NCBI GenBank assembly: GCA_021786105.1
Contig: JAJYNW010000006.1
Span: forward strand, 1-64,000
DNA from: a bacterium
Lineage (GTDB): Bacteria > Patescibacteriota > Microgenomatia > Daviesbacterales > UBA10151
Direction: 5' to 3'
Length of the DNA stretch: 64,000 bases
Shown here piece after piece: positions 156-44,746 of the stretch (positions are counted from its first letter, which is position 1; every line of letters starts with the position of its first letter). The notes beneath the pieces were generated by a model, which had not been told where the DNA came from, ran no database searches, and saw only the letters and a program-made list of their open reading frames with translations. The position numbers and the translations under genes were made by a program.

Positions 156-590
156 TTAGATAAACGGGGTAATCATTTCAGCAACATCTTCCGGCAGATC
201 CGAGATAATATCCTCTGCTTCCCCCAAGCTGATGTGTTTCTGAAGCGCCATCAAGACCGCGCTGACTACATCTTCTATGTTATCTTCCATGGAAAAGGGG
301 AATTGTCTTCTGATTTCCTGCAGGAATTCTTCCTTATTCATTTTTATGGGAACTTTGGCCGGATTCCAGCCATCATAATACATACCCCGTATCAGCATGG
401 GTAGTTGGGCGCCCAACTGGACTGCTTCTTCAACCGGCAGCCTATCCCTTAGCGTATGCAAGACTGCCCTAAGGGCAGCATAAGATTGATTCCGCCGGTT
501 TTCCCAGCCAAAAGTCTTTTCAATTTCTTTCAAAAGCTCATTGGTTTTTTGGATCGTATTATTAAATTCTTCAAATCCGCTTCCATCCAT
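156..590 (-). CDS. DUF2267 family protein
   Basis: ALRAVLHTLRDRLPVEEAVQLGAQLPMLIRGMYYDGW signature. Confidence 0.9.
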   Translation of the reverse strand: MDGSGFEEFNNTIQKTNELLKEIEKTFGWENRRNQSYAALRAVLHTLRDRLPVEEAVQLGAQLPMLIRGMYYDGWNPAKVPIKMNKEEFLQEIRRQFPFSMEDNIEDVVSAVLMALQKHISLGEAEDIISDLPEDVAEMITPFI

Positions 591-21525: not shown

Positions 21526-22143
21526 TTATTGAAACCTGCGGATCACACCGACGCATTTGCCCTGGATTTTGACATCAGTGGCATAAATGGGGGACATGGC
21601 GGCATTGGCTGGTTCTAATCTGATCCGGTCTTTTTCCTTGAAAAATCTTTTTAAGGTGGCTAAGCCATTATCCAAAAGCGCCACCACGATATCGCCATCC
21701 CGGGCAGTATTTTGTTCTTCAATGATGACATAATCACCGTCCAAAATCCCATCTTCAATCATAGAGTTGCCTTTAACCTGCAAAACATAAGAACGCTTTT
21801 TGCCGGAAATCATATTGGGAGCAACTTTAACAGTGGCATCAGGATCAGTAAAAGGCAGAATTGGTGAACCGGCGGCAATAAAGCCCAGAACCGGCAGTTC
21901 AATCCCTTTCAAAGAAGAAGAGATTTTTTGGTCTAAAACTTCAATGCCCCGGACTGCCCCTTCAAATCTTTTAATCACGCCTTTTTGGGCTAAAGCCTGC
22001 AGGTGTTCGTGAACCGTAGCCAAGGAGGAAACGCCAATGGCTTCGGCAATTTCTCCTAAGGTAGGCGAGTAGCTGTATTTATCAATGTATTGCTTGATAA
22101 AATCCAGGATTTGCTTTTGGCGGCGGTAAAGGGTTATTGGCAT
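21526..22143 (-). CDS. lexA: SOS repressor LexA
   Basis: HTH SPTLGEIA; IAAG cleavage site; GNSM and TLK catalytic dyad. Confidence 0.97.
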   Translation of the reverse strand: MPITLYRRQKQILDFIKQYIDKYSYSPTLGEIAEAIGVSSLATVHEHLQALAQKGVIKRFEGAVRGIEVLDQKISSSLKGIELPVLGFIAAGSPILPFTDPDATVKVAPNMISGKKRSYVLQVKGNSMIEDGILDGDYVIIEEQNTARDGDIVVALLDNGLATLKRFFKEKDRIRLEPANAAMSPIYATDVKIQGKCVGVIRRFQ

Positions 22144-22559: not shown

Positions 22560-23831
22560 TCAGAACATATATTGGTGGTTGCGGGAGTGCAGCAGGGCAG
22601 GGATCATTTTTGAATCAAGGTGATTGATTTTATCAATCAGGCTAAAGTCTTTTGGATCGGAAAATGGGATCTGTATGCGTTCCCCGATATCTTTATTCCA
22701 GAATCTGAACCATCTTTTTTCCGGCATGCCCAGGCTGGCAAATAAATGCGGGAAAAATTTATCTCCGATGATGTATATAACATCATCCCGGATTTCCTGA
22801 ACTTGCGGGGAAAGTAAATTATGGTGACCGGAATCTAGAAGATGGAATTCTTCCTTCACGATCTCCCTTTGTATGCGATCAAGCTTTATTTCTCCCCTAT
22901 CGTCAAGTTCCAGTATTAACCAGGCATTTTGCCGGGCGCTTTCAGTGGCTGTATAAAGGGTGCCAAAGCTTATAGGGTAATCTGCCATTTTCTGAAGCGC
23001 TTCCTCGGTTACTTCTATATTCATATCTTGATCCAGCCATTGACCGATTTCTTTCGGTGTGGCATCCGGAGGTAACTTCGATCTTTTACTTAACCTGCGG
23101 GCTTCTGATTTGGCATCGGTCAGCAGCGCATAAACAGTGACATTCTTTGGATTCTCGGAACAAAGATGTTTTATGAGAGTGAAGCCCCGGTTGGATCCTA
23201 AGTAAGAATAACCGTTTGATGTTCTTGAGGTAACATCTGAAACGCCGGAAGCGGTCATGGCGGGGAAATCAAGTGCCGTAATGCCAATATGGTTTCTGTC
23301 TATGGTCGGCATCAGACTGCCTGGTTGCATTCCGTTTTTGGCTATTTCAACGGCCGGGAATCCAACATTGGTGATGATGTCAAAATCATCAGGAGACCAC
23401 CTGCCCAGTTCTTTGGATTCTACCAGATTAGATCCTTCTGCTGTCCGGATCATATTGATAAAAAGCAGCCGGTAATAAACGAGCACTTGCCGAGAGTTTC
23501 TTGAACCGGGATAGGGTACAATCCAGTCTTGATTATCGACTTCTTCCATAGATGGTTCCATAAGAGCGTAGATAAAATTGTTCATGAACTGATTTAAGGT
23601 ATCGGTTTTTCCCCAGGCTGGGGCGCCGATAGAAACAACAAAGTTCATTTTTCCGCGGGGAGGTGTTTGGACCCGGTTAAAGAGATCCTGAAAGAGTTCG
23701 GTAAATTGCGGGTCAGATCTTCCTTCCTTATTAGTAAAAGGTTTCAAGTAGTTCAGGATTTCTGCTCCCGGAGACATATCCCATATAGCATACATGGCCG
23801 GTGTTTGCTCCGGGCGGAAGCCATAGTTCAT
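22560..23831 (-). CDS. Hypothetical protein with a Walker A-like motif
   Basis: VVSIGAPAWGKT; ATGA-coupled to the kinase. Confidence 0.65.
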   Translation of the reverse strand: MNYGFRPEQTPAMYAIWDMSPGAEILNYLKPFTNKEGRSDPQFTELFQDLFNRVQTPPRGKMNFVVSIGAPAWGKTDTLNQFMNNFIYALMEPSMEEVDNQDWIVPYPGSRNSRQVLVYYRLLFINMIRTAEGSNLVESKELGRWSPDDFDIITNVGFPAVEIAKNGMQPGSLMPTIDRNHIGITALDFPAMTASGVSDVTSRTSNGYSYLGSNRGFTLIKHLCSENPKNVTVYALLTDAKSEARRLSKRSKLPPDATPKEIGQWLDQDMNIEVTEEALQKMADYPISFGTLYTATESARQNAWLILELDDRGEIKLDRIQREIVKEEFHLLDSGHHNLLSPQVQEIRDDVIYIIGDKFFPHLFASLGMPEKRWFRFWNKDIGERIQIPFSDPKDFSLIDKINHLDSKMIPALLHSRNHQYMF

Positions 23832-24988
23832 ATTTTTGCTTTTGCTAATTGTACTTCTACCAAAGTTCCTTTGCCAGGATGTGATTTAATTTTAATTGAG
23901 CCTCGGTGTTTTTCAATAATACTTTTACACAAGAATAATCCCAGCCCCATTCCTTTAGAGGTGTCGTCCTCCTTTTTGTAGTAGCCTTCAAAGACCTTTG
24001 GTAAATCTTTTTTGCTAATTCCTTTACCCTGATCAATAACCCGCAAAACATAATTATGAGGTTTGGAGTCCAGGCGGATGGTGATCTGGGTATCCGGTGA
24101 GGAAAATTTAGCCGCATTCTCCAAAAGATTGTTAAGAACTTGTAATAGTTTGTCAAAATCCCCAATAATTTTATCATTTGGATTGTTAAGGAGATCTTCA
24201 AATATAATTTTTCTGTCCGGGTAGTTTAATTTAATTTTTTGAATTGCCATGTAGATAATTTCTTTCAAAGAACATTCCCTAAAAACGTACTGCAGTTCTC
24301 CTGACTTAATACGCTCGATTTCCAAAAGTTCTTTAATTAAAAGAGTCAGATGATAACTTTCCGCATGCAGAAATTTAATCCATTTTGCTTCTGTGTTATT
24401 TCTTCCACTGCTTTTGGTATTTAGAAGCTGAGTGTAGCCAAAAATAGTGGCTACAGGGGTACGTAGCTCGTGTGCTGCCAAAGAAATAAACAAATCTCTG
24501 TTTTTCAAAGCTTTCCTTGTCTCATCATAAAGCTGCGTCTTTCTGATTGCCATAGAGGCCATGGAGGCAAACAGGCTTAAGATTTTTAGCTTATCATTAT
24601 TAAAATGCTTCTCTTTACATGATAATACAGTTAAGACTCCAATAGACTTCTTGTGGTATGACAAAGGAATAATCATGGTAGATTTCATCCCTGCAGCTTC
24701 TAGCTGGGGATGAATTTTAACCATCTTTTCTATTTTAGTGATTAAAGGTTTATGGCTTGTATAAGCTTGATATACAAAACCTTTTTTACGTTGTTTAAAA
24801 GAATATAAGACAGCAGATGTAGCATATACTCTTTTAAGCTTTTTTCCTTGCTTTAAGAATATAGAAGCATCATCAGCCTGCACTAATTTTTTGGCCTCTT
24901 TGCCTACTATTGCATAAGTTTCCTCCGGGGTTAGCGGTTCCAGAAGCTTTAATCCTGATTTATAGATTTCCTCAAGAATATTTTCCAT
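23828..24988 (-). CDS. Cytoplasmic GAF-domain histidine kinase, paralog of 7037..8212
   Basis: HELRTP, NLLENAAKF, DQGKG, GMGLGL; MENILEEIYKSG aligns with MDNTLEAIYQSG. Confidence 0.92.
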   Translation of the reverse strand: MENILEEIYKSGLKLLEPLTPEETYAIVGKEAKKLVQADDASIFLKQGKKLKRVYATSAVLYSFKQRKKGFVYQAYTSHKPLITKIEKMVKIHPQLEAAGMKSTMIIPLSYHKKSIGVLTVLSCKEKHFNNDKLKILSLFASMASMAIRKTQLYDETRKALKNRDLFISLAAHELRTPVATIFGYTQLLNTKSSGRNNTEAKWIKFLHAESYHLTLLIKELLEIERIKSGELQYVFRECSLKEIIYMAIQKIKLNYPDRKIIFEDLLNNPNDKIIGDFDKLLQVLNNLLENAAKFSSPDTQITIRLDSKPHNYVLRVIDQGKGISKKDLPKVFEGYYKKEDDTSKGMGLGLFLCKSIIEKHRGSIKIKSHPGKGTLVEVQLAKAKI

Positions 24989-25052
24989 GGAGTGCTCGCT
25001 GAAGGAATAATAATAACAGGTCTTGAGGTTATTGCAATACAAAAACCTAATC

Positions 25053-25150: not shown

Positions 25151-25945
25151 ATGCCGGAAGGCGAACTAAGAGAATTACCAAAGTTAGGGATTGATTTTGA
25201 TGGGACGATGGTGAATGTCATCGGTCCTTTTGTGCTTTGGTTGCGGTCAACTTATCCCAATAAGTTTACTAAAGCCCAGTATTTAAATAAAAATCCTGAT
25301 GCCTCAGACCAGAAACAGCGTGATTACTCGGAGGTCAGGAGAGTTTTCATGACGGATCCTAAACGCATACCGGACCTGTCTTTTTACCGGGGAGTTTTGC
25401 AAGCTCTGCCGTTATTGAAGAGAGATTTCTCCGAAATCTATATCAATTCTTTAAGGTGGACGGACCCGGATCCCGAAAAAGACCAAGAATCTTCCATAAG
25501 AGGACTTTTAAGAGAGAATCATAGCTCTGAATATATCTCGGGAATTCTTTTAAGGAAAACCAGGGATGACAGAAAATGGGAGGTTAAGCTGGAGAATACA
25601 CAAGAGTTCGGTATCAGCTATATGGTGGAAGATGATTCAAAGATAGCGCTGCGTCTTGCAAAATACCTGGAAGGAATTGTTTTGATTAGGAGACCCTGGA
25701 ATAAACACGAACCTAATAATCCGGGCTATGACCTTGCTAACCGCGAAAATTTAATAATATGCAGGGGGCTTTGGGATTTTGCGATGGGGGTTTATTTAGC
25801 CGGTTCTGTGGAAGAGTTTTTTGTAGAACATGCAGAAGGTTTAAAAGATCCCGTAAATCTTTATACTGTTTACCAGGCGCCGGTTCCCGCAGAAACGTGG
25901 ATATCCCTCACCGTATCCAGAGAGTTAGTTTCCTCATCTTCTTAG
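25151..25945 (+). CDS. HAD-superfamily protein, 5'(3')-deoxyribonucleotidase-like
   Basis: GIDFDGT, MVEDD, RPWN. Confidence 0.75.
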   Translation: MPEGELRELPKLGIDFDGTMVNVIGPFVLWLRSTYPNKFTKAQYLNKNPDASDQKQRDYSEVRRVFMTDPKRIPDLSFYRGVLQALPLLKRDFSEIYINSLRWTDPDPEKDQESSIRGLLRENHSSEYISGILLRKTRDDRKWEVKLENTQEFGISYMVEDDSKIALRLAKYLEGIVLIRRPWNKHEPNNPGYDLANRENLIICRGLWDFAMGVYLAGSVEEFFVEHAEGLKDPVNLYTVYQAPVPAETWISLTVSRELVSSSS

Positions 25946-26187
25946 TTTAGATATCTTGTAGTATTAATCAATTTTTTGTTACATGAATTGTTAAAAACAA
26001 AGGGTTGACAAGATCTAAAAAAGGGCTTATAAAAGAAATTGTAAGGTTTTTTTGAATTTTTCCTGCCCCGATATCAATGAATTCTCAATCTTTAAATATT
26101 AATAATCAAAATTATTCAGACCAGCTGTTTAGAGCTGGTTTTTTATTGGAAAAAACATTTAAATTCTAGGGAAAGGGGGTGAAAAAA

Positions 26188-26778
26188 ATGGGAAAAATAA
26201 TTTCAGGTTTATTAGGTTTGGTAATGGTAGTGGCAGTAGTTTCCGGCACAGCTTATGCTGTATTTTCAGATCAAGTACAAGTAAGTGGTGTAACTTTGTC
26301 TACCGGTAATGCTGATTTACAAATTTGGGATGGAGATGGATGGCAAGAGAGTCTGTCATCAGCACTATTTACCGGTAACACTTACCCGGGTTGGCAGCAA
26401 GGTCAATATTTTGCTTTGCAAAATAATAGCGCTTCAAACATCGGATTGGATGTTACCGCTAGATTGACCAGTGCACCGTCCGGTAACTGGGGATTGCTCA
26501 GCCCGATAGTCCAGGTAGCAGTGGTTCAGTATGATAGTCAAGCTGCTGCATTGGCTGCTGTTGCCGCCAACAACCCCGGTCTTGGTGGAGTAGATGCTAG
26601 TACAGGATGGCAGACTTTAGCCGCATGGAATGCAAGTCCGATAGCTATTAGTACTAATTTGTTGAAGGGTGCACAGGGTGATTTTGTGATTTGGGGAAAG
26701 ATTCCCTCAGATGCAGGTAACTCTATTGCAAACCAGTCGCTTACGACTGATTGGGTGTTAATCGGTACTCAGCATTAA
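26188..26778 (+). CDS. TasA/camelysin-like protein with SipW-type signal peptide
   Basis: GTAYA|VFSDQVQVSGVTLSTGNADL; PG motif; followed by sipW (alternative start 26179). Confidence 0.8.
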   Translation: MGKIISGLLGLVMVVAVVSGTAYAVFSDQVQVSGVTLSTGNADLQIWDGDGWQESLSSALFTGNTYPGWQQGQYFALQNNSASNIGLDVTARLTSAPSGNWGLLSPIVQVAVVQYDSQAAALAAVAANNPGLGGVDASTGWQTLAAWNASPIAISTNLLKGAQGDFVIWGKIPSDAGNSIANQSLTTDWVLIGTQH

Positions 26779-26844
26779 TAAAGGTTTGAGTGCTTACTGA
26801 TGGCATAAGGCAACTTGTGCTGTCAGATAAGGATTTAACTTTTT

Positions 26845-28872
26845 ATGAAGAAAACTTTAAAAAAGATTAATTTAGTATGGAAGAAAGTTGAAAAACCTGC
26901 AAAAATTGCCGGGAAGATTTTAGAGTGGGGAGTTTTTGCTGTTTTGGTTTTAATCTTTACCGTAGTGTTATCACCGCTTCTGCCGACTAAAAAATATGTT
27001 TCTACTTATATTGTGTCTTCCGGTTCAATGGAGCCAACAATCAAAACCGGCTCAATCGCTTTTATTCAGCCGATAAAAGCAGATCAGGTTAAAGAAGGAG
27101 ATATTGTTACTTTTACCCAACCAACAGATTCGACAAAAATTATCCTGCACCGGATTTTTAAAGCAGAAAACCAGAATGGAAATTTAAGTTTTCAAACCAA
27201 GGGTGACTATAATAATGGCCCGGATATGTGGAACGTCCCTTCCACTTTAATGCAGGGGAAATATATTGCAGCCGTTCCTTATTTAGGGTATCCGGCCATG
27301 CTAATGAAAACTCCAAAAGGTTTTGCTATAATAGTCGGCATTCCTGCCCTGCTCCTGCTCTTCCTGCAAATTAAAAAAATAAAGGAGGGTATTGAAGAAG
27401 AAGTCCAGAAAAGAACTGAGAGAGCTTTAAAGAAAGCAAAGCCTGTTAAAACTGACCTTTTAAGTATTTTGATGGCGGTAACCTTACTTTCTATACTTAC
27501 TGGTTACAGCAGTATGAAATCAGTATCAGCTCTTTTTGTGTCTAAGGTAATGGTCAGCGGAGTTTCCATTTCCGTTAAGGATTTTGTGCCTCCGCCGGTC
27601 CCAGCCTTACTTTTGCCAGAGAATAATTCCAGCAGAAACACTAATGGGATGGTGATGGATTGGACTGATGTTTCTGATTATAAAGATATGCACAATCCGG
27701 TTTATTATATTTACCAAAGCGCTTACGATCCAGATTTTAAATCTGTTGCTTATACTTCCGCGCATCTTGCTGTTTCCCAAATTCCCGCTCCAGGAACTCC
27801 TAATGGAATTTATTATTGGCATGTTAAGGCTTGCGACTCCATCGATAATTGTTCGGCCTGGTCAGATGCATGGAAGGTAACTGTGGACAATACTCCTGCA
27901 CCTTCACTTACCCCCACAGCTACACCAAGTGCTACCCCAACTCCAACACCTTCCCCCACACCATCCCCTTCTCCTAGCGTGGTTATCAATGAAGTGATGT
28001 GGATGGGGTCGACTAAATCTGTGGCTGATGAATGGCTGGAGCTTCGTAATATGACTGATCATGAAATTGATCTTTCTAGCTGGCAAATTGAAAATGCAGT
28101 TTCCGGAGAGGGTGGCCATTTAGAAATTCCTGCACATAAAGTTATTCCGGCAAATGGATATTTCCTAATTTCCAACTACGAAGATGATGAGACTCATTCA
28201 GCTTTAAATGGGAGTTTACATATAGATTACCAGACAACAAGCATAAATTTTGAAAATGATTATAGGGAAAATGGGGCTTTGATTCTTAAAGACAAAGATA
28301 AAAATGTGATAGATTCAACCCCGGATCCAGTTTCTGGTAATTGGCCGGTGGGAAATGATGCTGGTTCAACCGGTTTGCATCAGTCCATGGAAAGAAATAA
28401 TATTCCCGGAGATGGGAGGTTGGTCAGTAGTTGGCATGCCTGCACTGATTCAGCTTGCCAAAGCACGGATTACTGGACTGTGAGTGGGGATAATTATGGA
28501 ACTCCCAGGGCTTTAAATCATTCTGACAATGATCCAAGTACGACACCAACACCAACTCCTACTCCCACGCCCGCCCCAACACCAACTCCGACACCATCGA
28601 CAACAATCAATCCGGTTCCTGAATCGTCACCGTCAGCAAATTTAGGTTCCTCATCCGAGCCGGAACCTGAAGCATCTTTATCTCCGGCTCCTTCGTCTGC
28701 TCCTGAACCAAGCATGACACCGGTTCCTTCAGCGAGTCCGTCACCAACGCCGTCAGCAGAACCTGCCTCGAGTCCGGAGCCCTCTCCCACCCCTTCACCG
28801 TCACCTGTAACTGGATCTGTTTCAACTCCGGAGCCATCGCCGTCTGCAACTCCTGCCCCCAAACGAAAATGA
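26845..28872 (+). CDS. sipW: SipW-type signal peptidase I fused to Ig-like and lamin-tail domains with Pro/Ser/Thr tail
   Basis: SGSMEP, GDIVTF, HR, TKGDYN, PYLG; VVINEVMW...DEWLELRN lamin-tail motif. Confidence 0.85.
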   Translation: MKKTLKKINLVWKKVEKPAKIAGKILEWGVFAVLVLIFTVVLSPLLPTKKYVSTYIVSSGSMEPTIKTGSIAFIQPIKADQVKEGDIVTFTQPTDSTKIILHRIFKAENQNGNLSFQTKGDYNNGPDMWNVPSTLMQGKYIAAVPYLGYPAMLMKTPKGFAIIVGIPALLLLFLQIKKIKEGIEEEVQKRTERALKKAKPVKTDLLSILMAVTLLSILTGYSSMKSVSALFVSKVMVSGVSISVKDFVPPPVPALLLPENNSSRNTNGMVMDWTDVSDYKDMHNPVYYIYQSAYDPDFKSVAYTSAHLAVSQIPAPGTPNGIYYWHVKACDSIDNCSAWSDAWKVTVDNTPAPSLTPTATPSATPTPTPSPTPSPSPSVVINEVMWMGSTKSVADEWLELRNMTDHEIDLSSWQIENAVSGEGGHLEIPAHKVIPANGYFLISNYEDDETHSALNGSLHIDYQTTSINFENDYRENGALILKDKDKNVIDSTPDPVSGNWPVGNDAGSTGLHQSMERNNIPGDGRLVSSWHACTDSACQSTDYWTVSGDNYGTPRALNHSDNDPSTTPTPTPTPTPAPTPTPTPSTTINPVPESSPSANLGSSSEPEPEASLSPAPSSAPEPSMTPVPSASPSPTPSAEPASSPEPSPTPSPSPVTGSVSTPEPSPSATPAPKRK

Positions 28873-29987
28873 AAAAAATACTTAAAGTTTTAATATTGGT
28901 TTTGATAGGTTTTTCCTTTTTTCCGGCTTTGGCAAGGGCAGCAGACTTGAATATCGATTGCAATTCTTCTGACTGCACCAAAACCGGGCTGGAACCTATT
29001 TTCAGTACTGCTCTTGATGGAGTCTGGCATCCTGGAAGGATTATTACCAAGACGATTAATTTGAAAAATTCGGGAGCAGATACTAGTGAAATGGCTATTA
29101 AGGGAACAAGGGTGGGTGAGGCTGGTGCTTTAGAGCAAGTGATGAATGTCAGTTTGTCGGCGCCGGAAGGGCCGGTAATCTGGGCCGGCAGTTTGGCTGA
29201 TTTTTATGCCCAGGACGTAATCAGGATGGGTGTTTTTGAGCCGGGTAAGGATTTGGATTATAACTTTACAGTCGGTATGGACTACGGGGCGGGTAACGAT
29301 TACCAGAATTTGCAGGCAACTATGGATCTTTCCGTAGGTTTTTGGACTGAACCACCTTCCAGCCCCACTCCGTCTCCGGCCTCAACTTCCAACGGCAACG
29401 GGAGTAGAGATGTATTGGGGGCAGGAGTCAGTGCTCCTTCTTGTAATGATGCCAAGCCGGCAACTCCTAATCTACTTTCAGCTGTAGTTACCGGTCCGAA
29501 CCAGGTTACTTTAAACTGGTCTAAAGCTGATGGTAGTGTCAGCTATTACCTGGTGGCTTATGGGCTGGAATCCGGGAAGATGCTTTATGGCAATCCTAAT
29601 GTGGGGGGTGCAGATACCACTTCTTATACGGTTAATGATTTATCCGGCGGAACAACTTATTATTTTAAAGTCAGGGCCGGTAACGGTTGCACCCCGGGAG
29701 AGCTTTCCAACGAATTATCAGCCACCCCAGGAGGCCAGGCAGTAACCGGTACTCCGGCAGGCTTTTTGCCGGGTGTTTTAGGAGTGACAAACGAAGAAGC
29801 AGTGCCTTCGTCAGAGCCGGAGAGTTCCCAATCAGGTATTTTAGGTGCTGAAACATCACCAAAACCGAAAGAGGCTGTAATAGTGGGAGGTTTTATGGGT
29901 AAACTGGGTTGGTTTGTTTTAGGACCTGTGGCATTATTTGTTTTTCTTTTCGGACGCAAGCTTTTAGGTAAAAGATTTCCGTTTTAG
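28869..29987 (+). CDS. Exported protein: TasA-like domain, fibronectin III domain, C-terminal TM
   Basis: WHPG...INLKNSG; VTLNW...YTVNDLSGGTTYYFKVRAGN. Confidence 0.8.
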   Translation: MKKILKVLILVLIGFSFFPALARAADLNIDCNSSDCTKTGLEPIFSTALDGVWHPGRIITKTINLKNSGADTSEMAIKGTRVGEAGALEQVMNVSLSAPEGPVIWAGSLADFYAQDVIRMGVFEPGKDLDYNFTVGMDYGAGNDYQNLQATMDLSVGFWTEPPSSPTPSPASTSNGNGSRDVLGAGVSAPSCNDAKPATPNLLSAVVTGPNQVTLNWSKADGSVSYYLVAYGLESGKMLYGNPNVGGADTTSYTVNDLSGGTTYYFKVRAGNGCTPGELSNELSATPGGQAVTGTPAGFLPGVLGVTNEEAVPSSEPESSQSGILGAETSPKPKEAVIVGGFMGKLGWFVLGPVALFVFLFGRKLLGKRFPF

Positions 29988-30054
29988 CTACTGTATTTTC
30001 GGGTCTTCTTCGTGTTAAAATTGGCATTAACGATACAATGTTTAAATCGTTTAT

Positions 30055-30135
30055 GTCATCCTGAGCGAGCGAAGTGAGCCGAAGGGACTCTGTCATGTTT
30101 CGAGATTGCTTCGTCACTTCGTTTCTCGCAATGAC
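30055..30135. repeat. GTCAT...ATGAC palindromic REP-like element in the uvrB leader
   Basis: GTCATCCTGAGCGAGCGAAG...GAGATTGCTTCG...CTCGCAATGAC. Confidence 0.8.
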
Positions 30136-30143
30136 TGGAAAAT

Positions 30144-32117
30144 ATGGCAAATTTCAAAATTATTTCCGATTTTAAGCCTACCGGCGATCAGCCGCAGGCA
30201 ATAGACAAGCTGGCAACTGGCATTAATGCCGGAAAAGAAAACCAGGTTCTGTTAGGTGTAACCGGTTCCGGTAAAACCTTTTCCATGGCTAATGTTATTC
30301 AAAAAGTACAAAGGCCGACTTTAATTATTTCCCACAATAAAACTTTGGCCGGACAACTGGCCCAAGAATTTAGATCCATTTTTCCCAACAATGCCGTGGA
30401 ATATTTTGTGTCTTATTACGATTATTATCAACCGGAGGCGTATATTCCCCAATCCGATACTTACATTGAGAAGGAAACGCAAATTAATGAGGAAATTGAA
30501 AAATTAAGGCTGTCAACTACTGCCTCTTTGTTGAGTCGCCGGGATGTCGTGGTGGTGGCCTCGGTTTCCTGCATCTATAACTTGGGTTCTCCCGTCGAAT
30601 ACGGCCAGGCGATTTTGGAAATCGGCCGCGGTATGAAGGCCGGTATGCAGCAGGTAATGAAAATCCTGCAAAAGATGTATTATGACCGGAATGATATTGA
30701 GTTCAAGCGGGGTACTTACCGGGTCCGCGGTGATACTTTGGATATTTTTCCTTCTTATATGGATCAAGGTTACAGGTTACAGTTTTTAGGTGACAGAGTA
30801 GAAAAAATAAGCCAACTGGAAGTTGTAACAGGAAATACTACGGAAACACAAGGCACGCAGACTGTTTATCCAGCTAAGCATTACATTACTCCGGAGCAAA
30901 GGATTGTGCCCGGGATAAAACAAATTGAGATTGATTTGGAAAACCGGCTTAAGCAGCTAAAATCCAGCGGAAAGTTAGTGGAAGCGCAAAGGTTAGAACA
31001 AAGGACTCATTATGATTTGGAAATGATCCGGCAGTTTGGTTATTGTAACGGAATTGAGAATTACTCGCGCTATTTTGACGGCCGGGAGCCGGGCGACGCA
31101 CCATTTACCTTAATGGATTACTTTCCCAAGGATTTCCTGCTGATTGTTGATGAGTCACACATTACCATTCCGCAAATTAGGGGGATGTATAATGGAGACC
31201 GTTCCCGTAAAGAAACTTTGATTGATTTTGGTTTCCGGCTGCCGTCGGCTTTGGATAACCGGCCGCTTAAGTTCGACGAATTCCAACGAAGAATTAACCA
31301 GGTTGTTTATGTGTCCGCCACGCCGGATGAGTACGAATTGTCGTTGACTGGTCAAGACGGAGTGGTCGAGCAATTGGTCAGGCCCACCGGGATTTTGGAT
31401 CCGGAAATTTCTGTGAGACCAATTCAGGGACAAATTGAGGATTTGATTGGGGAAATTAAAATCCGGGTGGAAAAGGGTGAGCGGACTTTGGTGACCACTT
31501 TAACCAAAAGGACAGCAGAAGATTTAGCAGAATATATGCATGATAAAGGAATTAAAGTGCACTATCTTCATTCTGATGTGGCCACTTTGGAAAGAGGAGA
31601 TATTTTGCAGTCGTTACGGCTGGGGGAGTATGACGTGATTGTGGGAATTAACCTTTTGCGGGAAGGATTGGATTTGCCGGAAGTTTCTTTGGTGGCTATT
31701 TTGGATGCGGATAAGGAAGGATTTTTAAGATCGAGAACTTCTTTAATTCAGACCATGGGACGGGCTGCAAGGCATGTTAAAGGGCAGGTAATCATGTATG
31801 CGGATAATGTGACCAAGTCCATGAAAGCAGCCATGGATGAGGTAGAAAGAAGAAGGAAATATCAGCAGGAATATAACAAAAAACATAACATTACCCCCAA
31901 AAGTATTGAAAAAGCTTTGCGGGAAAGATTGATTGAAAAAGTAGAGGAGTTGGAGGAAGAATTAGGTAAAAAAGATTTGACCATTGATGATATTCCGGTA
32001 AAAGAACGGAAAAAGATGCTGGAAAACCTGGAGGCTCAAATGAAGCAAGCAGCAGAAATTTTGGACTTTGAAGAAGCAGCCAGAATAAGGGATCAAATTA
32101 AAGAACTGACCATCTAA
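30144..32117 (+). CDS. uvrB: Excinuclease ABC subunit B
   Basis: GVTGSGKT, YYDYYQPEAY, DESH, UVR tail. Confidence 0.98.
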   Translation: MANFKIISDFKPTGDQPQAIDKLATGINAGKENQVLLGVTGSGKTFSMANVIQKVQRPTLIISHNKTLAGQLAQEFRSIFPNNAVEYFVSYYDYYQPEAYIPQSDTYIEKETQINEEIEKLRLSTTASLLSRRDVVVVASVSCIYNLGSPVEYGQAILEIGRGMKAGMQQVMKILQKMYYDRNDIEFKRGTYRVRGDTLDIFPSYMDQGYRLQFLGDRVEKISQLEVVTGNTTETQGTQTVYPAKHYITPEQRIVPGIKQIEIDLENRLKQLKSSGKLVEAQRLEQRTHYDLEMIRQFGYCNGIENYSRYFDGREPGDAPFTLMDYFPKDFLLIVDESHITIPQIRGMYNGDRSRKETLIDFGFRLPSALDNRPLKFDEFQRRINQVVYVSATPDEYELSLTGQDGVVEQLVRPTGILDPEISVRPIQGQIEDLIGEIKIRVEKGERTLVTTLTKRTAEDLAEYMHDKGIKVHYLHSDVATLERGDILQSLRLGEYDVIVGINLLREGLDLPEVSLVAILDADKEGFLRSRTSLIQTMGRAARHVKGQVIMYADNVTKSMKAAMDEVERRRKYQQEYNKKHNITPKSIEKALRERLIEKVEELEEELGKKDLTIDDIPVKERKKMLENLEAQMKQAAEILDFEEAARIRDQIKELTI

Positions 32118-32192
32118 CCCCTTTAAAAGTCTTGCAAAATAGTTTAAAATAGGTGCTTACTTTTCGGGAAAAATTCGTCCCCAAAATTTTTT

Positions 32193-35132
32193 ATGGCTAT
32201 AGATAAGATTACTATTAAAGGTGCTCGTGAGCATAATTTAAAAAATATTGACTTGGAAATTCCTAAAAACAAGCTGGTGGTTTTGGTGGGCATTTCCGGT
32301 TCAGGTAAATCTTCTTTAGCTTTTGATACATTGTATGCGGAAGGCCAAAGGCGGTATGTGGAATCTTTATCTTCCTATGCCCGGCAATTTTTAGGCGTAA
32401 TGGATAAGCCGGATGTGGATATGATTGAAGGCTTGTCTCCGGCCATTTCCATTGATCAAAAAGGCGTTTCTCACAACCCCCGTTCTACAGTTGGTACTAC
32501 CACGGAGATCTATGATTATATGAGGCTATTGTTTGCCCGGGTTGGTCACCCCCATTGTCCGGTTTGCGGCCGGGAAGTTTCCAAAATGTCAGTGGAACAG
32601 ATTGCAGAAAAGGTGACGCAACTTCGTCATCCTGAACTCGTTTCAGGATCTGATAAAGAGATTCCGAAACAAGTTCGGAATGACAAAAGAGGTCGGAGGA
32701 TAATGATTTTGGCTCCGGTGGTTAAAGACCGAAAAGGGGAATATAGCCAAATGTTTGAGGATTTTAGGAAAAAAGGATTTTCCAAAGTTAGGGTTGACGG
32801 GCAAGTCAGGGATTTATCAGATGATTTTGTTTTGATTAAAACTAATAAACATACGATTGATTTGGTGATAGATCGGTTAGTTCTGGATACAAAAAGTGCA
32901 CAAGATCAAACTTTGTACTCAAGATTATCCCAAAGTATTGAAACAGCGCTCAAATTTGGTGAAGGAGCCGTGATTGTTTCTGATGTTTTGGATGCTGCTT
33001 TGGAATTCCCTCCAAATCCCAAGAAAATGGAAGATCATCTTTATTCAGAAAGGTTTGCTTGTCCGGTAGACAATATTTCTCTGCCGGAAATTGAACCAAG
33101 ATTATTGTCTTTTAATTCTCCGCATGGCGCTTGCCCGAAATGTTTAGGCTTGGGAACGCTTTTAGAGATAGATGAAACCACTATTTTAAATCCGATTTTA
33201 TCAATTGCTGAAGGCGGAATATTGCCCTGGTCAAAACTGGTTACCAACGACACCTGGTTTACCAGGCTGATTGAGGCGGTCGGAAAAAAATATGGCTTTG
33301 ATGTGAATACCAGATTGGGAAATTTGACAGCTGAAGCCTGGCAAGTTTTGCTTCACGGGGCTCCAGACGAAGAATTTAAGGTGGAAGGCAGGAACAGGCA
33401 AGGCAAGTGGACGCATTTTTACTCAGAATTTACCGGGCTGGTGATTTACCTAAAAGAAAGATACGAAACCTCGGAATCGGATTTTGTCAAAGCAGAAATT
33501 GAAAAGTACATGGTGAAAGAAACCTGCCCGAAGTGTAAGGGCGCCAGGTTAAAAGATGAGGCTTTATCAATCACTATTAATGAATTAAATATTGCCGAGG
33601 TAACCAGTCAGTCGATCATTCAGACTTTGGAGTGGATAAAAACCATTAAACTCTCCGACAGGGAAGCTCAAATTGCCGCCCCGATTTTGAAAGAAATTAT
33701 TTCCCGGCTGCAGTTTTTAGTTGATGTCGGTTTGGATTATTTAACTTTGGATCGGGCTGCCATGACTTTGGCAGGCGGTGAGTCGCAAAGGATTAGACTG
33801 GCTTCCCAAATCGGGTCCGGGTTATCCGGAGTTTTATATGTTTTGGACGAACCGTCAATTGGTTTGCACCAGCGAGACAATTCAAGGCTGATTGAGACGT
33901 TAAAAAAACTCAAGAATCTGGGTAATACGGTGGTTGTTAATGAGCATGACGGAGAAACTATGGAAGCGGCTGATATGCTGATTGAGATTGGACCGGGAGC
34001 CGGAGAGCACGGAGGTAATATTGTTTTTGCTGGTACCCCGGATGAAATGAAAAAAAGTTCAGTTTCTTTGACCGGACAATATTTGTCAGGCAGGAAAAAA
34101 GTTGAAGTAGCAGATGATCTAAAACGAGCACCGGTGGAAATGGGTCATCTTAAAGTGCTGGGTGCAGCTGAGCATAATCTGAAAAATATTGATGTCTCTT
34201 TCCCTCTGGGGAAGTTCGTTACTGTGACTGGTGTATCCGGTTCCGGCAAGTCAACTTTGATTCACGATATTTTATATAAAGCTATGGCGCAAAAGATTTA
34301 CCGGTCCCGGGAAAGGGCAGGTTTGCATAAGAGGATTGAGGGGACGGAATACATAGATAAGGTAGTTTTGGTAGATCAATCGCCAATTGGCCGGACTCCC
34401 CGTTCAAATCCAGCTACCTACACCGGAGCTTTTACCCACATCAGGGAATTATTTGCTCAATCTCCTGAGGCTAAAATCAGAGGCTATGGCCCGGGCCGGT
34501 TTTCTTTTAATGTGAAAGGCGGCAGGTGTGAGGTTTGCGAGGGAGAAGGACAGCTGAAGATTGAAATGCAGTTTTTGCCGGATGTGTATGTGACTTGTGA
34601 GTCGTGTAACGGAGCCAGGTACAACCGGGAAGCTTTAGAGATTCGTTTTAAAGATAAAAATATCTCCGAGGTACTAAATATGACCGTGGAAGAGAGCCTG
34701 AGATTTTTTGAAAATATTCCTCAAATTAAAAATAAGCTGCAGGTGTTGTTTGATGTGGGCTTGGGCTACATTAAACTGGGTCAGCCGGCGCCCACTCTTT
34801 CCGGAGGTGAAGCCCAAAGGATTAAGCTTTCTTCGGAATTATCCAAAAGAGCAACCGGCCGAACTCTCTATATTCTGGATGAGCCCACTACAGGATTGCA
34901 TTTTGCTGATATTGAAAGGCTGTTGAATATTTTAAGGAAGCTGGTTAATTTTGGTAACACAGTGGTTATCATTGAACATAATCTGGATGTGATTAAAAAT
35001 ACAGATTGGATAATAGATTTAGGGCCGGAAGGCGGGGATAAAGGCGGGCAAATTATTGCTGAAGGTACTCCGGCTCAGCTTTGTAAAATCAAGGATTCTT
35101 ATACCGGCCAATACCTGGCAAAGATGTTGTAA
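32193..35132 (+). CDS. uvrA: Excinuclease ABC subunit A
   Basis: Two ABC domains (GSGKS, LSGGE, LDEP) and Zn fingers. Confidence 0.98.
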   Translation: MAIDKITIKGAREHNLKNIDLEIPKNKLVVLVGISGSGKSSLAFDTLYAEGQRRYVESLSSYARQFLGVMDKPDVDMIEGLSPAISIDQKGVSHNPRSTVGTTTEIYDYMRLLFARVGHPHCPVCGREVSKMSVEQIAEKVTQLRHPELVSGSDKEIPKQVRNDKRGRRIMILAPVVKDRKGEYSQMFEDFRKKGFSKVRVDGQVRDLSDDFVLIKTNKHTIDLVIDRLVLDTKSAQDQTLYSRLSQSIETALKFGEGAVIVSDVLDAALEFPPNPKKMEDHLYSERFACPVDNISLPEIEPRLLSFNSPHGACPKCLGLGTLLEIDETTILNPILSIAEGGILPWSKLVTNDTWFTRLIEAVGKKYGFDVNTRLGNLTAEAWQVLLHGAPDEEFKVEGRNRQGKWTHFYSEFTGLVIYLKERYETSESDFVKAEIEKYMVKETCPKCKGARLKDEALSITINELNIAEVTSQSIIQTLEWIKTIKLSDREAQIAAPILKEIISRLQFLVDVGLDYLTLDRAAMTLAGGESQRIRLASQIGSGLSGVLYVLDEPSIGLHQRDNSRLIETLKKLKNLGNTVVVNEHDGETMEAADMLIEIGPGAGEHGGNIVFAGTPDEMKKSSVSLTGQYLSGRKKVEVADDLKRAPVEMGHLKVLGAAEHNLKNIDVSFPLGKFVTVTGVSGSGKSTLIHDILYKAMAQKIYRSRERAGLHKRIEGTEYIDKVVLVDQSPIGRTPRSNPATYTGAFTHIRELFAQSPEAKIRGYGPGRFSFNVKGGRCEVCEGEGQLKIEMQFLPDVYVTCESCNGARYNREALEIRFKDKNISEVLNMTVEESLRFFENIPQIKNKLQVLFDVGLGYIKLGQPAPTLSGGEAQRIKLSSELSKRATGRTLYILDEPTTGLHFADIERLLNILRKLVNFGNTVVIIEHNLDVIKNTDWIIDLGPEGGDKGGQIIAEGTPAQLCKIKDSYTGQYLAKML

Positions 35133-35156
35133 AGAGATTTTTGCTACAATGAAATA

Positions 35157-37073
35157 ATGGTTAAAAGAGTTTTAGTGCTAATCGTCTTCCTGTTCTGCCT
35201 CATCTTGCCGCAAAAAGTGTCTGCTGCAGAGCTTCCAACTGGTAAGGCTGGATTTGCTACTGCTTATGATGTTTTGTACGACGTGGATGACAGCGGAATA
35301 ACCGCTGTTACTGAAAAAATCACCCTCAAAAATTTAACTTCGGAATACTATGCCAATCAATTTAAATTAACCATTGGAGCCACCCAAATTTCCGATATTA
35401 ATGCTTCTGATCCTGGCGGACCGTTGGAGGTGACTCAACAGCAACAGGCCACCACCACTACTATCGGAGTGAAATTCAACCAGCAGGTAGCAGGATTAGG
35501 GAAGAGCCTGTCTTGGACTATCTCGTTTAAATCCAAGGATTTTGCGGAAAAATCCGGTAAGGTTTGGGAAATCAGAACCCCGAAAATTTCTTCCACCTCA
35601 AATATGGAATCCTACAACCTGACTTTATCTGTACCGCAGAGCTTCGGTGAGCCTTCTTTAATCAGCCCGCTTCCCAAGAGCCAAACCATTTCTATGGGTA
35701 AAATATTTTTGACTTTTGATAAAAGCCAGCTGGAATCTTCCGGCATCTCTGCCAATTTTGGTGCAAATCAGCTGTTTGATTTTGACCTGACATATCACCT
35801 AAAAAATGACAATTGGATGCCGATTCTGACTAGTGTGGCCTTGCCTCCTGATACGTCTTTTCAGGATGTGATTTACCAAAGAATTGAGCCTAAGCCGCTT
35901 AATGTGACGGTGGATAATGACGGTAATTATTTAGCTTGGTTTTGGTTAAACCGCGGCCAGAAAACGGATGTAAAAGTTTTTGGCTCGGCAAAGCTTTATA
36001 CAAATTCTAAAGTAAAACATCCTTTTTTGGATGACACCTTACGGAGGAAATATACTGAATCTGCTAAATACTGGGAAAAGGATAACCCGCAAATTTTGGC
36101 TAAATTAAATGAAATTCTGGGCAGTAACCCGGCGGTGGATACGGAAACTAAAGCTAAGCTGATTTTTCAGTTTGTGGTGGATTACTTAAGATACGACCCC
36201 TCGAGATTGAAAGACAGTAACACGGAAAGGTTGGGCGCTGTGACAGCTTTGGCCAACCCAAATTCGGCAGTCTGTATGGAGTTTACTGATTTATTTATTG
36301 CGCTGGCCCGGGCAGCCGGCATACCGAGCCGGGAATTGGATGGGTACGCTTATACTGCCAATTCCACCTTGCGGCCACTTTCTTTGACCAAGGATATTCT
36401 TCATACCTGGCCGGAGTATTGGGATGACAGACGCGGCTGGGTTATGGTAGATCCAACCTGGGCCAATACTACCGGCGGAGTTGATTATTTTAGCAAATTA
36501 GATTTAAATCACTTTGTTTTTGCAGTAAAAGGTTTTTCCTCTACCGATCCTATCCCGGCTGGTTCTTACAAATCCGGTGATCAGGATTCCCATGATGTGA
36601 AAGTGACTTTATCCGAGAATGATTTTTTAGGTAAACCGCAGATTGATGTTCAAATTGATATCCCAAATCCGATGCTGTCCGGTCTTCCCGGAGTAATAAA
36701 ATTAAAAGTTACCAATACCGGTAATGCCGTTTATCCGTCAGCCCCATTGGCTGTAAAGGCTGATAAGCTCTTAATACTTGATTCAGCGGACCAAAGTTCC
36801 GGTTTAATCCCGCCTTTTGGTACAGCCGAGTTTAGTTTTAATACCCGGACTAAATCCCTATTTGATACTTACAATGACCAAATTTCCGTGACTGTCGGCG
36901 GACAGAAATTTACCAAAGACATTGTAGTCAAACCCTTAATATTATTCCAGGGAACACCATTTATAATAGCTTCGGTTGGAGTATTGATGGTGCTAATTTA
37001 CATATCAGTTTTAGGCGTCCACATCCATCAGAAAAGGAAGGCCAAGGGTAAGAAAAAGCACGTTAGAAAGTAG
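35157..37073 (+). CDS. Exported transglutaminase-like protein
   Basis: AVCMEF, HTWPEY, WVMVDPTW triad; N- and C-terminal TM. Confidence 0.88.
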   Translation: MVKRVLVLIVFLFCLILPQKVSAAELPTGKAGFATAYDVLYDVDDSGITAVTEKITLKNLTSEYYANQFKLTIGATQISDINASDPGGPLEVTQQQQATTTTIGVKFNQQVAGLGKSLSWTISFKSKDFAEKSGKVWEIRTPKISSTSNMESYNLTLSVPQSFGEPSLISPLPKSQTISMGKIFLTFDKSQLESSGISANFGANQLFDFDLTYHLKNDNWMPILTSVALPPDTSFQDVIYQRIEPKPLNVTVDNDGNYLAWFWLNRGQKTDVKVFGSAKLYTNSKVKHPFLDDTLRRKYTESAKYWEKDNPQILAKLNEILGSNPAVDTETKAKLIFQFVVDYLRYDPSRLKDSNTERLGAVTALANPNSAVCMEFTDLFIALARAAGIPSRELDGYAYTANSTLRPLSLTKDILHTWPEYWDDRRGWVMVDPTWANTTGGVDYFSKLDLNHFVFAVKGFSSTDPIPAGSYKSGDQDSHDVKVTLSENDFLGKPQIDVQIDIPNPMLSGLPGVIKLKVTNTGNAVYPSAPLAVKADKLLILDSADQSSGLIPPFGTAEFSFNTRTKSLFDTYNDQISVTVGGQKFTKDIVVKPLILFQGTPFIIASVGVLMVLIYISVLGVHIHQKRKAKGKKKHVRK

Positions 37074-37080
37074 CAGGCGG

Positions 37081-38448
37081 ATGAGGTATACTACGCGTCC
37101 TATGATACCTGTCTTCATTGATAGATCCCAAATCCCGCACCAACCTGGTGTTTATATTTACAAAGATAACCGCGGGAGAATTTTATATGTCGGAAAAGCG
37201 ATAGATTTATACCACCGGGTGGCATCTTACTTTCACGCTTCGAGTCAGGAGGAGAGTCCCAAAACAAAAGCTTTGGTGGAACGGATAGCAGGAGTGAAAA
37301 CTATTGTGGTGGAATCAGAATTGGAGGCCCTGATTTTAGAGGCTAACCTGATCCAGAAATATCTACCGCCGTTTAATATCAGGCTGACGGATGAGAATGA
37401 TTATTTATATATTGCCGTAACTGACGAAGATTTCCCCAAAATTATCACTGCTAGAAAAAAAGACCTGCCTGCCGGCAGGCAAGGTCTTGGTAAGGAAAAA
37501 AAGTATTGGGGCCCTTTCCCTTCCAGTCGGACTGTTAGGGAAACTTTGAAATCTCTGAGGAGAGTCTTCCCCTGGTGTTCGAATTTCCAATCCCGGTTTG
37601 TCGATTCAAAACCAAACCGGGATCGGAAACGTAGGCCGTGTTTTTACTACCATATTGGCTTGTGTCCGGGCGTGTGTGCCGGATTGGTGACTAAGGAAGA
37701 CTACGCTAAGATTATCAGCAGATTCTCAAAATTTATGGATGGGAAAAAAGAGGAATTGGTTTCCCAACTGACTAAGGAAATGTTGTCAGCGTCTGAGAAC
37801 CGCCGGTTTGAAGAAGCTGCCAAAATCAAAAAAATCCTGGGGGGAATTGTTTACATGACTCAACCCAACCGAACCAAACTTTATTTGGAAAACCCGAATT
37901 TTTTAGAAGATGAAAGACGGTTGGCTCTGGAGGAACTTAAAAAAGAATTAAGCTTGGAAAAGTTGCCGCGTAGGGTTGAAGGATATGATATTTCCAATAT
38001 TTCCGGTCAGGAAGCCACAGGATCCATGGTAGTTTTGACCCACGGCGAGATTGATAAATCCCAATACAGGAAATTTAAAATCAATATTTCGGGTAAACCG
38101 AATGATGTGGGGATGCATCGGGAGATGATGAGAAGAAGGTTGCGGCATAAAGAATGGCCAATGCCTGATTTAATTCTAATTGACGGAGGTCGGGGGCAAG
38201 TGCGGGGAGTTTGCTCAGAACTGCAATCTGTTAACTGCCGAATACCAATTTTTGGTTTGGCTAAGCGGATGGAATGGCTATATCCGCCAGAGGGTGAGAT
38301 TTTGAAATTATCAAAAAAAAGCCCGGCCCTAAAATTATTGCAAAAGCTGCGGGACGAGGCTCACCGGTTTGCCGTCACTTACCACCGGAAATTACATGGT
38401 AGAATATTATTAGGTATCCCTTCGACAAGCTTAGGGAATATTCGGTGA
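37081..38448 (+). CDS. uvrC: Excinuclease ABC subunit C, lacking C-terminal HhH
   Basis: PGVY, LYVGKA, YDISN, IDGG, RDEAHRFA. Confidence 0.92.
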   Translation: MRYTTRPMIPVFIDRSQIPHQPGVYIYKDNRGRILYVGKAIDLYHRVASYFHASSQEESPKTKALVERIAGVKTIVVESELEALILEANLIQKYLPPFNIRLTDENDYLYIAVTDEDFPKIITARKKDLPAGRQGLGKEKKYWGPFPSSRTVRETLKSLRRVFPWCSNFQSRFVDSKPNRDRKRRPCFYYHIGLCPGVCAGLVTKEDYAKIISRFSKFMDGKKEELVSQLTKEMLSASENRRFEEAAKIKKILGGIVYMTQPNRTKLYLENPNFLEDERRLALEELKKELSLEKLPRRVEGYDISNISGQEATGSMVVLTHGEIDKSQYRKFKINISGKPNDVGMHREMMRRRLRHKEWPMPDLILIDGGRGQVRGVCSELQSVNCRIPIFGLAKRMEWLYPPEGEILKLSKKSPALKLLQKLRDEAHRFAVTYHRKLHGRILLGIPSTSLGNIR

Positions 38449-42158: not shown

Positions 42159-42716
42159 ATGAGAAGAATTCTTTTAGCCACTGTAATCGCCACTGCTTCT
42201 CTTTCGGTAGCTGTGATGACAACTTGGGCTGCCTGGACTTCGTCTGTAACAGTCAGTAATAACGTTATTACTACAGGCAGTGTTAGCTTGCAAGTTTCTC
42301 TTACTGGTAACAGTAATGATTATGGATCATCTGTATCCTCAAGCACAGCGATATCCGGTTTAATGCCTACCAATACAAGCAGTAAAGGTACGACATTCTA
42401 TGTAAAAAACAACAGCTCAACCGGGGTTAATTTTAACCTGGGAGCTGTAGGATCAGCTGTTATTTCTGGGAGTCCTGCACCTGCCGATTTAACCAGTCTG
42501 CAGATATCAATTGTCCCGAGTGGAAGCTCAGCTTCAACAATTGATGCTAACTATCATACATTGTCTGCATGGGGATCCAGTCAGACTTTGGGTACTTTGA
42601 GTTCAGGAGCAAGCCAACCATATGATATATATGCCAAGCTTGCTACCACCGCAGCCGATGATTGGCAAGGAAGACAAGTAACCTTTGCCGTTACGGTTAC
42701 CGGTTCACAGATCTAG
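42159..42716 (+). CDS. TasA-like protein with SipW-type signal peptide, locus 2
   Basis: TTWA|AWTSSVTVSNNVITTGSV; SD AGAAAGGAGGTGA. Confidence 0.8.
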   Translation: MRRILLATVIATASLSVAVMTTWAAWTSSVTVSNNVITTGSVSLQVSLTGNSNDYGSSVSSSTAISGLMPTNTSSKGTTFYVKNNSSTGVNFNLGAVGSAVISGSPAPADLTSLQISIVPSGSSASTIDANYHTLSAWGSSQTLGTLSSGASQPYDIYAKLATTAADDWQGRQVTFAVTVTGSQI

Positions 42717-42786
42717 AATTTTTCTAGTCTTTTTGGGAGTCAAAGGGACGCCTTTGGCTCCTTGTAAAGGTTAGAAGTTTAATTAT

Positions 42787-44698: not shown

Positions 44699-44746
44699 CA
44701 GCCTGAATTGACATATGCAAGTTACCTATAGTAAACTTTAGAACTT

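Follow-up and report, generated by a model that had tools for sequence, protein, structure and literature searches.

The subject of this analysis is a 64,000-nucleotide (nt) stretch of contig JAJYNW010000006.1, here called the window, and within it a locus at 26179 to 29987 (locus 1) that, in the open reading frame (ORF) listing, is filled by three ORFs on the plus strand. ORF1 encodes a TasA-like protein, the candidate major subunit of a fibre, ORF2 encodes a signal peptidase of the SipW type that continues in the same frame into further domains, and ORF3 encodes a second TasA-like protein. The most probable explanation of ORF2, although one we hold with some reserve, is that a dedicated SipW-type peptidase and one of its own substrates are joined in it as a natural fusion, which is cleaved so that the released part serves a TasA-like fibre.

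The N-terminal part of ORF2 matched TIGR02228, the model for signal peptidase I of the endoplasmic reticulum (ER)/archaeal type, at 114.6 bits (cut-off 51.85; residues 30 to 178). Signal peptidases of this type have a catalytic Ser-His rather than Ser-Lys, and Ser61, His102, Asp121 and Asp127 are all present in ORF2. Across 72 fused proteins, made up of 71 database relatives with a peptidase domain plus the window's ORF2, the same residues were found in 71/72, 72/72, 71/72 and 72/72, respectively. Judged by these residues, the peptidase looks active. The equivalog model of Bacillus SipW, NF046067, gave 104.3 bits, which is below its curated cut-off of 190, and hence the enzyme is SipW-like but is not an orthologue by NCBI's Bacillus model.

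The original prediction, made from the letters of the window, pointed to an internal hydrophobic segment behind the SipW domain that ends in SVSA. Such a segment is present, since the string SVSA↓LFVSKVMVSGVSISV (the arrow marks a predicted cut) sits in ORF2 behind the peptidase domain and the hydrophobic stretch 203 to 220. The sequence after this third hydrophobic segment is YSSMKSVSA229↓L230FVSKVMVSGVSISVKDFVPPPVP, and the predicted cut, with Ala229 at P1 and Leu230 at P1', falls between nt 27531 and 27532. Where the two parts join, the DNA contains neither a stop nor a start codon, and Leu195, at the position at which one would look for a start, is encoded by TTA. ORF2 thus has a type I site of the TasA kind, V-S-A↓L-F, preceded by a basic linker with 8 lysine and arginine residues (K+R) and by a hydrophobic core at 203 to 220.

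The same arrangement was found throughout the family. The motif A↓xF stands at the equivalent place in all 71 peptidase-bearing relatives, and 71/71 likewise showed a third hydrophobic segment, then A↓[LFY]F, then a strand-like stretch (70 by threshold and one, P0055, by eye). P1 is Ala in 67/72 and Ser in 4/72 of the fused proteins (one or the other in 71/72), P3 is I, V, T, A, S, L or G in 71/72, which fits the −3 rule, and P2' is aromatic (F, Y or W) in 66/72. In TasA, which SipW cleaves, P2' is likewise Phe (PMC10269814). The linkers measured in 71 of the fused proteins have a median length of 25 amino acids (aa) and a median K+R of 7, with at least three K+R in 69 and a net positive charge in 62, and such positively charged linkers fit the positive-inside rule for a cytoplasmic loop. 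On this pattern of conservation, the predicted cleavage site is under selection.

To score the segment, we used a signal profile of our own, seeded from the N termini of 18 stand-alone proteins and compared with 432 shuffled or reversed decoys. In round 1, the profile located the internal segment where it was expected in 19/72 fused proteins, with scores over those of all 432 decoys. It took until round 3 to reach the window's segment, which then scored 7.2 bits (highest decoy, 4.5). In the last two rounds that were counted, 67 to 69 of some 70 matches lay at the expected place, and the final iterated profile ranked all 72 fused proteins above every one of the 432 decoys. This result, together with the occurrence of motif and segment at one place in every relative, points to more than chance.

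Table 1. Features of locus 1 and of the split cassette (locus 2) in window coordinates; arrows mark predicted cleavage sites
Feature	Residues or length	Nucleotides	Strand	Basis or remark
ORF1, TasA-like major subunit	199 aa as listed	26179-26778	+	
ORF1 signal peptide	1-27			ends AYA↓VF
ORF1 putative donor strand	28-43			VFSDQVQVSGVTLSTG
ORF1 jelly-roll core	44-199			
ORF2	675 aa	26845-28872	+	single uninterrupted frame
ORF2 SipW/ER-type signal peptidase I domain	20-189	26902-27411	+	TIGR02228
ORF2 first transmembrane helix (TM1)	23-48			hydropathy scan
ORF2 second transmembrane helix (TM2)	158-177			hydropathy scan
ORF2 third hydrophobic segment	203-220			hydropathy scan
ORF2 catalytic Ser	61	27025-27027	+	
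ORF2 catalytic His	102	27148-27150	+	
ORF2 further catalytic residues	Asp121, Asp127		+	
ORF2 basic linker	178-202	27376-27450	+	KIKEGIEEEVQKRTERALKKAKPVK; predicted cytoplasmic; stands in for signal-peptide n-region
ORF2 internal signal-peptide-like segment	h-region 203-220, c-region 221-229	27451-27531	+	ends SVSA
ORF2 N-terminal strand of predicted released protein	230-247	27532-27585	+	LFVSKVMVSGVSISVKDF; similar to ORF1 donor strand
ORF2 immunoglobulin (Ig)/Fn3-like domain	~250-345	27592-27879	+	structure search, lead only
ORF2 lamin tail domain	373-491	27961-28317	+	PF00932, 50.5 bits (cut-off 34.3)
ORF2 Pro/Thr/Ser-rich C-terminal tail	561-675 (115 residues)	28525-28869	+	
ORF3	372 aa	28869-29987	+	overlaps ORF2 stop by 4 nt
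ORF3 ordinary signal peptide	1-24		+	ALARA↓AD
ORF3 TasA-like core without donor strand	~25-160	28941-29348	+	hhalign
ORF3 Fn3 domain	200-285	29466-29723	+	fn3, 43.7 bits
ORF3 C-terminal membrane helix	346-367	29904-29969	+	AlphaFold 2 (AF2) model
Locus 2, unfused cassette		42159-45952		
Locus 2 TasA-like protein	185 aa			TIGR04088, 22.2 bits (passes cut-off 19)
Locus 2 stand-alone SipW	184 aa			TIGR02228, 115.1 bits
Locus 2 putative substrate		43341-44042		TTRA↓LFTDSIQVTNNNIST; directly behind stand-alone SipW
Locus 2 strand, Pro/Thr linker and cohesin protein	233 aa			
Locus 2 ORF3-like protein	219 aa			
Locus 2 protein with cohesin match and weak dockerin match	401 aa			

The single frame of ORF2 was confirmed in contigs of sequencing runs. 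Logan contigs of runs X1, X2 and X3, from two studies, span 26100 to 30000 whole with 0 differences from the window, of whose DNA these runs may be the source. In a further run, X5, a 1122-nt contig of a variant strain bridges 27349 to 28470 with 7 substitutions and no gaps, such that four runs from two studies bridge the junction without insertions or deletions. An assembly artefact, which the original prediction had named as the outcome that would undo it, was rejected on these grounds and because the fused frame recurs in relatives. Elsewhere in ORF2, within the peptidase domain at 27077 to 27082, an X5 variant-strain contig (depth about 5) carries two 1-nt changes 5 nt apart, one an insertion and the other a deletion, and the frame is regained after two codons.

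A homologue search with ORF2 over the length range 371 to 1182 aa listed 120 proteins. Our own hidden Markov model (HMM) detected the peptidase domain in 71 of these, and it is in this sense that the fusion, whose conservation the original prediction had proposed to check, proved to be conserved. Many of the 49 listed homologues that have no peptidase domain open with a like N-terminal signal peptide, followed by like domains. In the stand-alone examples P0047 and P0082, the N-terminal sites read ...A↓YFVSS... and ...S↓FFNN..., followed by DWTPPPVP..LLSPANNS. By this comparison of sequences, the fused part of ORF2 is a likely substrate.

We also examined the loci of 80 species, the best 80 of 507 confirmed public-genome matches. 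They contain 82 SipW ORFs, 18 of them fused by profile and 20 by profile or hydrophobic-segment tail. For 28 of the 64 SipW ORFs scored as unfused (the 64 include 2 that are fused by the tail criterion), the very next ORF opens with a cognate signal, and this ORF often overlaps the peptidase stop by 4 to 59 nt. A TasA-like gene with a cognate signal lies upstream in 16 of the 17 fused loci that have sufficient upstream DNA, and a second SipW is present in only 1/20 fused loci. The contigs, the 71 relatives and the 20 loci together show that the originally predicted fusion of a SipW-type peptidase with a substrate-like module is real and conserved.

The split version of the system exists within the same genome, as the unfused TasA-like cassette at locus 2. 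The parallel that had been drawn between SVSA and a second site, TTRA, in this cassette was borne out, the putative substrate in question being found right behind the stand-alone SipW (Table 1). The two predicted mature N-terminal strands at locus 2 are alike in their own way (AWTSSVTVSNNVITTG versus LFTDSIQVTNNNISTG). A tree built from 83 peptidase domains requires at least 7 changes in the fused state, at least 3 of them forced by well-supported branches, and most fused forms fall in two supported clades. A SipW-type match over the cut-off was found in only 10/61 related genomes and in 0/18 genomes of the same genus, and for this reason the SipW cassettes of locus 1 and locus 2 are patchy and were perhaps acquired. 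Judged by frame length only, 7 of the 13 SipW-type matches in the 61 related genomes are frames of at least 273 aa, the window's own included. At one public locus from the Patescibacteria (L024, 3825 to 9926), two SipW genes, a 266-aa one that carries a short strand-like tail as a fusion and a 207-aa stand-alone one, are interleaved with several TasA-like and two membrane-anchored ORF3-like genes, which makes it two tandem cassettes.

ORF1 probably starts at the ATG at residue 4 (nt 26188) and not at the listed GTG, because the alignments of its family begin at query residue 4, where Met is almost invariably present. This family has 254 representatives at E ≤ 0.001. The AF2 model of ORF1 has a predicted local distance difference test (pLDDT) value of 90.3, with residues 28 to 46 lacking secondary structure at a pLDDT of 60 to 72. 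Its top Foldseek match in the PDB is 8aur_A, the TasA fibre (E 9.2e-6, probability 1.0, TM-score by query 0.50), its second fold match is 7ueg, archaeal AbpA, and weaker matches are to the Fim, Pap, Csu and CFA/I pilins. On the strength of this model, ORF1 has a TasA-like jelly-roll fold, and the unrelated fold that would have told against the original prediction was not what we found. At the level of sequence, the top three hits of the ORF1 family profile against PDB sequences were TasA (5of1, 8aur) and AbpX, at E values of 0.05 to 0.08 that are not significant, and PF12389 (Peptidase_M73) gave 14.5 bits, under its gathering cut-off of 22.5, and covered the signal-peptide region only (residues 6 to 50). 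TIGR04088, the model for SipW-cognate signals, matches 19/83 members of the ORF1 family at E ≤ 0.01. TasA homologues in Patescibacteria have been noted from the Pfam distribution (PMC9245690).

The protein that the original prediction described as combining Fn3 with a transmembrane segment corresponds to ORF3, which has a TasA-like core, then Fn3, then a membrane helix at its C terminus. An hhalign comparison of the ORF1 and ORF3 families (probability 97.9, E 6e-13, 107 columns) aligned ORF1 residues 63 to 194 with ORF3 residues 45 to 156, and by this alignment the N-terminal domain of ORF3 is homologous to the ORF1 family. The alignment begins at ORF1 residue 63, past the donor strand, and our cognate-signal profile found no match in ORF3. 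A fold search (VIA) with the whole ORF3 model was filled with Fn3 matches (best Z 13.7) and was uninformative on the N-terminal domain. ORF3 belongs to a recurrent class, since 36 of the 80 TasA-like ORFs downstream of SipW in the 80 loci have a C-terminal hydrophobic segment; 26 of the 80 have a cognate signal.

The part of ORF2 behind the predicted cut carries no TasA-like domain. Its Ig-like region had no Pfam match at E ≤ 0.1, and two Atlas searches gave leads only, namely, Ig_Rha78A_N-like clusters in a structure search of residues ~250 to 345 (TM-score by query 0.80 to 0.86) and a top score of 0.87 in a feature search of residues 239 to 350. No membrane anchor was seen in the C-terminal tail (residues 561 to 675), and the antisense ORFs listed over this tail are probably composition artefacts.

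The predicted new N terminus of the released protein, LFVSKVMVSGVSISVK, is identical to the ORF1 strand VFSDQVQVSGVTLSTG at 7 of 16 positions. Across 35 loci, the strand of the accessory scored higher against the major-subunit strand of its own locus than against those of other loci, both over P3' to P16' (mean BLOSUM62 score 30.7 versus 18.8) and over P7' to P17' (17.4 versus 9.2), and in neither case did any of 5000 permutations reach the observed value. When the comparison over P7' to P17' was made with the five nearest-kin loci, the own-locus score was higher in 24/35 and lower in 10/35 (Wilcoxon p 0.004). Co-variation is also present at P1' to P4' and is weaker there (14.5 versus 12.1). 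A complex prediction of ORF1 residues 44 to 199 with ORF2 residues 239 to 345 gave a score of 0.02 (mark 0.32), which has no bearing on strand exchange because the partner lacked the first nine strand residues, the predicted mature start being residue 230.

The original prediction saw the lamin-tail protein as a released subunit of the fibre. The substrate-like module with its donor-like strand stands, whereas the role of polymerising subunit was rejected because a protein that has no TasA-like domain can give a strand but is unable to receive one. A primer or cap like TapA fits better, since the strand is donor-like in the absence of a TasA fold, it co-varies with that of the major subunit, and TapA provides a precedent: its N terminus resembles the TasA donor strand and has been proposed to supply the first strand (PMC9674648 and PMC10151520). 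TapA-like is used here for function and not for sequence family.

We therefore envisage, on the reading of ORF2 as a cleaved fusion, the following course of events. TM1 would cross the membrane from inside to outside, the catalytic domain would lie outside, TM2 would return from outside to inside, and the basic linker would be cytoplasmic. The third hydrophobic segment would then cross from inside to outside as an internal signal peptide, bringing SVSA↓LF (residues 229 and 230) to the outer face beside the active site. Cleavage there, in cis or in trans, would leave the peptidase as a 229-residue membrane protein with three helices and would yield a soluble product consisting of an 18-residue strand, the Ig-like domain, the lamin-tail domain and the Pro/Thr tail. 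As the counterpart of TapA, this product would fill the groove in the first ORF1 subunit, thereby priming or capping the fibre, of which ORF1 would form the shaft through donor-strand exchange. ORF3, with a membrane-tied core that can only accept a strand, would terminate and anchor the fibre.

Such an arrangement has much in common with the tapA-sipW-tasA operon of Bacillus subtilis. In both, a dedicated signal peptidase of the ER/archaeal type is encoded next to a major subunit with the TasA fold (8AUR), an accessory has an N-terminal strand that imitates the major subunit's donor strand, P2' at the cleavage sites is aromatic, and adjacent genes overlap. Unlike in Bacillus, the peptidase and the TapA-like accessory of locus 1 are one polypeptide, joined via an internal signal peptide, and the genes run from major subunit through peptidase-accessory to anchor. 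The accessory has Ig-like and lamin-tail domains, whereas TapA has a V-set Ig fold, and locus 1 adds a third, membrane-anchored TasA-like protein that would act as an acceptor only (ORF3). At the sequence level, locus 1 also falls outside both Pfam Peptidase_M73 and the Bacillus SipW equivalog.

Two other kinds of pilus bear comparison. The archaeal bundling pili found in Pyrobaculum calidifontis (AbpA/AbpB, 7UEG) have, like ORF1, a TasA-like jelly-roll subunit, joined by donor strands, and a proposed accessory gives the first strand and has distal adhesin-like domains; unlike at locus 1, the accessible text of PMC9245690, from which these points come, places no dedicated signal peptidase gene near the archaeal bundling pilus operon and reports neither a fusion nor a membrane-anchored acceptor. 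The chaperone-usher pili (Fim/Pap), likened here by their logic and by the weaker fold matches of ORF1, share with locus 1, as interpreted here, the division into a donor-only or tip component, a polymerising shaft and a terminator. Unlike those pili, locus 1 has no chaperone, usher or outer membrane, and its terminator would be an acceptor-only protein with its own membrane helix.

Several observations weigh against our interpretation. The original prediction had proposed a search with an HMM of SipW-cognate signals, and in this it was not supported, as TIGR04088 (cut-off 19 bits) did not match the 61-residue internal segment of ORF2, for which no family was found at E ≤ 10; on ORF1, the same model gave 16.3 bits and stayed under its cut-off. 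With our own profile, the window's segment scored −1.7 bits in round 1, and because it was reached late, there may be some profile drift. The sampling also favours fusions, in that the set of 72 was picked by length and hence holds long forms only and the 80 loci were ranked by their match to a fused query and are enriched for fused forms. Fusion is not required for function, given that the closest relative of the peptidase (L017, 58% identity in the peptidase domain) is a 200-aa SipW whose gene overlaps that of a 454-aa lamin-tail protein bearing an N-terminal signal peptide of its own. Either gene conversion or a shared peptidase specificity could also produce the co-variation of the strands. 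Finally, the cleavage, the strand exchange, the fibre, the binding and the attachment to a host are all things that we infer.

The first alternative is that ORF2 is cleaved but that the lamin-tail protein has nothing to do with a fibre, being instead a SipW-dependent secreted or surface protein whose likeness to ORF1 reflects recognition by the peptidase. The lack of a TasA-like domain in ORF2 and the co-variation that extends to P1' to P4' speak for such a product, and, to our knowledge, the function of bacterial lamin-tail domains is not known. We nevertheless think it unlikely, because the co-variation is stronger at P7' to P17', a long way from the scissile bond, and persists in the comparison with the nearest-kin loci, and because a Pro-rich linker directly follows the strand, as would be the case for a free donor strand; the precedent of TapA (PMC9674648) argues in the same direction.

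A second alternative, which we regard as quite unlikely, is that the third segment is a permanent membrane helix and that the intact 675-aa protein displays its Ig-like and lamin-tail domains while tethered to the peptidase. The topology would be the same as in the cleaved model, and the failure of TIGR04088 to match the segment would be explained, but a plain anchor needs neither Ala or Ser at P1, nor a P3 that obeys the −3 rule, nor an aromatic P2', and the module also occurs as free secreted proteins that carry this motif at an N-terminal signal peptide. Very improbable, lastly, is that two proteins arise by internal initiation (TTG208/ATG209 or ATG224) or that a sequencing or assembly error joined two genes: there are in-frame TTG and ATG codons inside the hydrophobic segment, and adjacent genes frequently overlap in relatives, but a start at Met209 would leave out the basic n-region together with part of the h-region, three assemblies agree exactly at the junction and the variant strain has neither insertion nor deletion there, and the fused frame is found in 71 database proteins and in 20 species' loci.

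A scan of 25800 to 30300 for promoters and terminators found no more of either than in shuffles (9 versus 8.2 and 5 versus 5.4, respectively). Downstream of locus 1, at 30144 to 38448, we recognised by eye uvrB (30144 to 32117), uvrA (32193 to 35132) and uvrC (37081 to 38448, with Pfam matches), and between uvrA and uvrC lies a 638-aa membrane protein with a transglutaminase-like core (35157 to 37073, PF01841, 60.9 bits). On the other side are, also by eye, a LexA-like repressor (205 aa, 21526 to 22143, minus strand) and a histidine-kinase-like protein (404 aa, 23828 to 25042, minus strand), between which there is a 423-aa ORF of unassigned kind (22560 to 23831).

A peptidase-substrate fusion was described in no paper found in a literature search conducted without subscription journals or supplements, and no type I signal peptidase joined by an internal signal peptide to its own substrate is known to us. 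Such a fusion is common in the relatives of this tiny uncultivated bacterium. A more ambitious version of our interpretation, which we offer tentatively and consider doubtful, is that the fusion peptidase is the priming station of a pilus that has no sortase or usher and whose tip, shaft and base come from three genes. Self-cleavage at the membrane would free the first donor strand, with the lamin-tail domain as its "tip," and so open the first ORF1 subunit; the fibre would grow at its base while ORF1 is being secreted and the one enzyme trims it, and ORF3, able only to accept, would take the last strand, ending the fibre and tying it to the cell. If true, this would amount to a three-part attachment fibre for ultra-small episymbiotic bacteria.

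The fusion is a natural "Rosetta stone" that tells which protein a dedicated peptidase serves. It points to a minimal and tractable three-gene kit for TasA-type fibres, with donor-only, polymerising and acceptor-only parts, that is widespread in the Patescibacteria, whose surface appendages and host attachment are poorly understood. The system is suited to asking whether a signal peptidase cuts in cis and how TasA-type fibres start and end.

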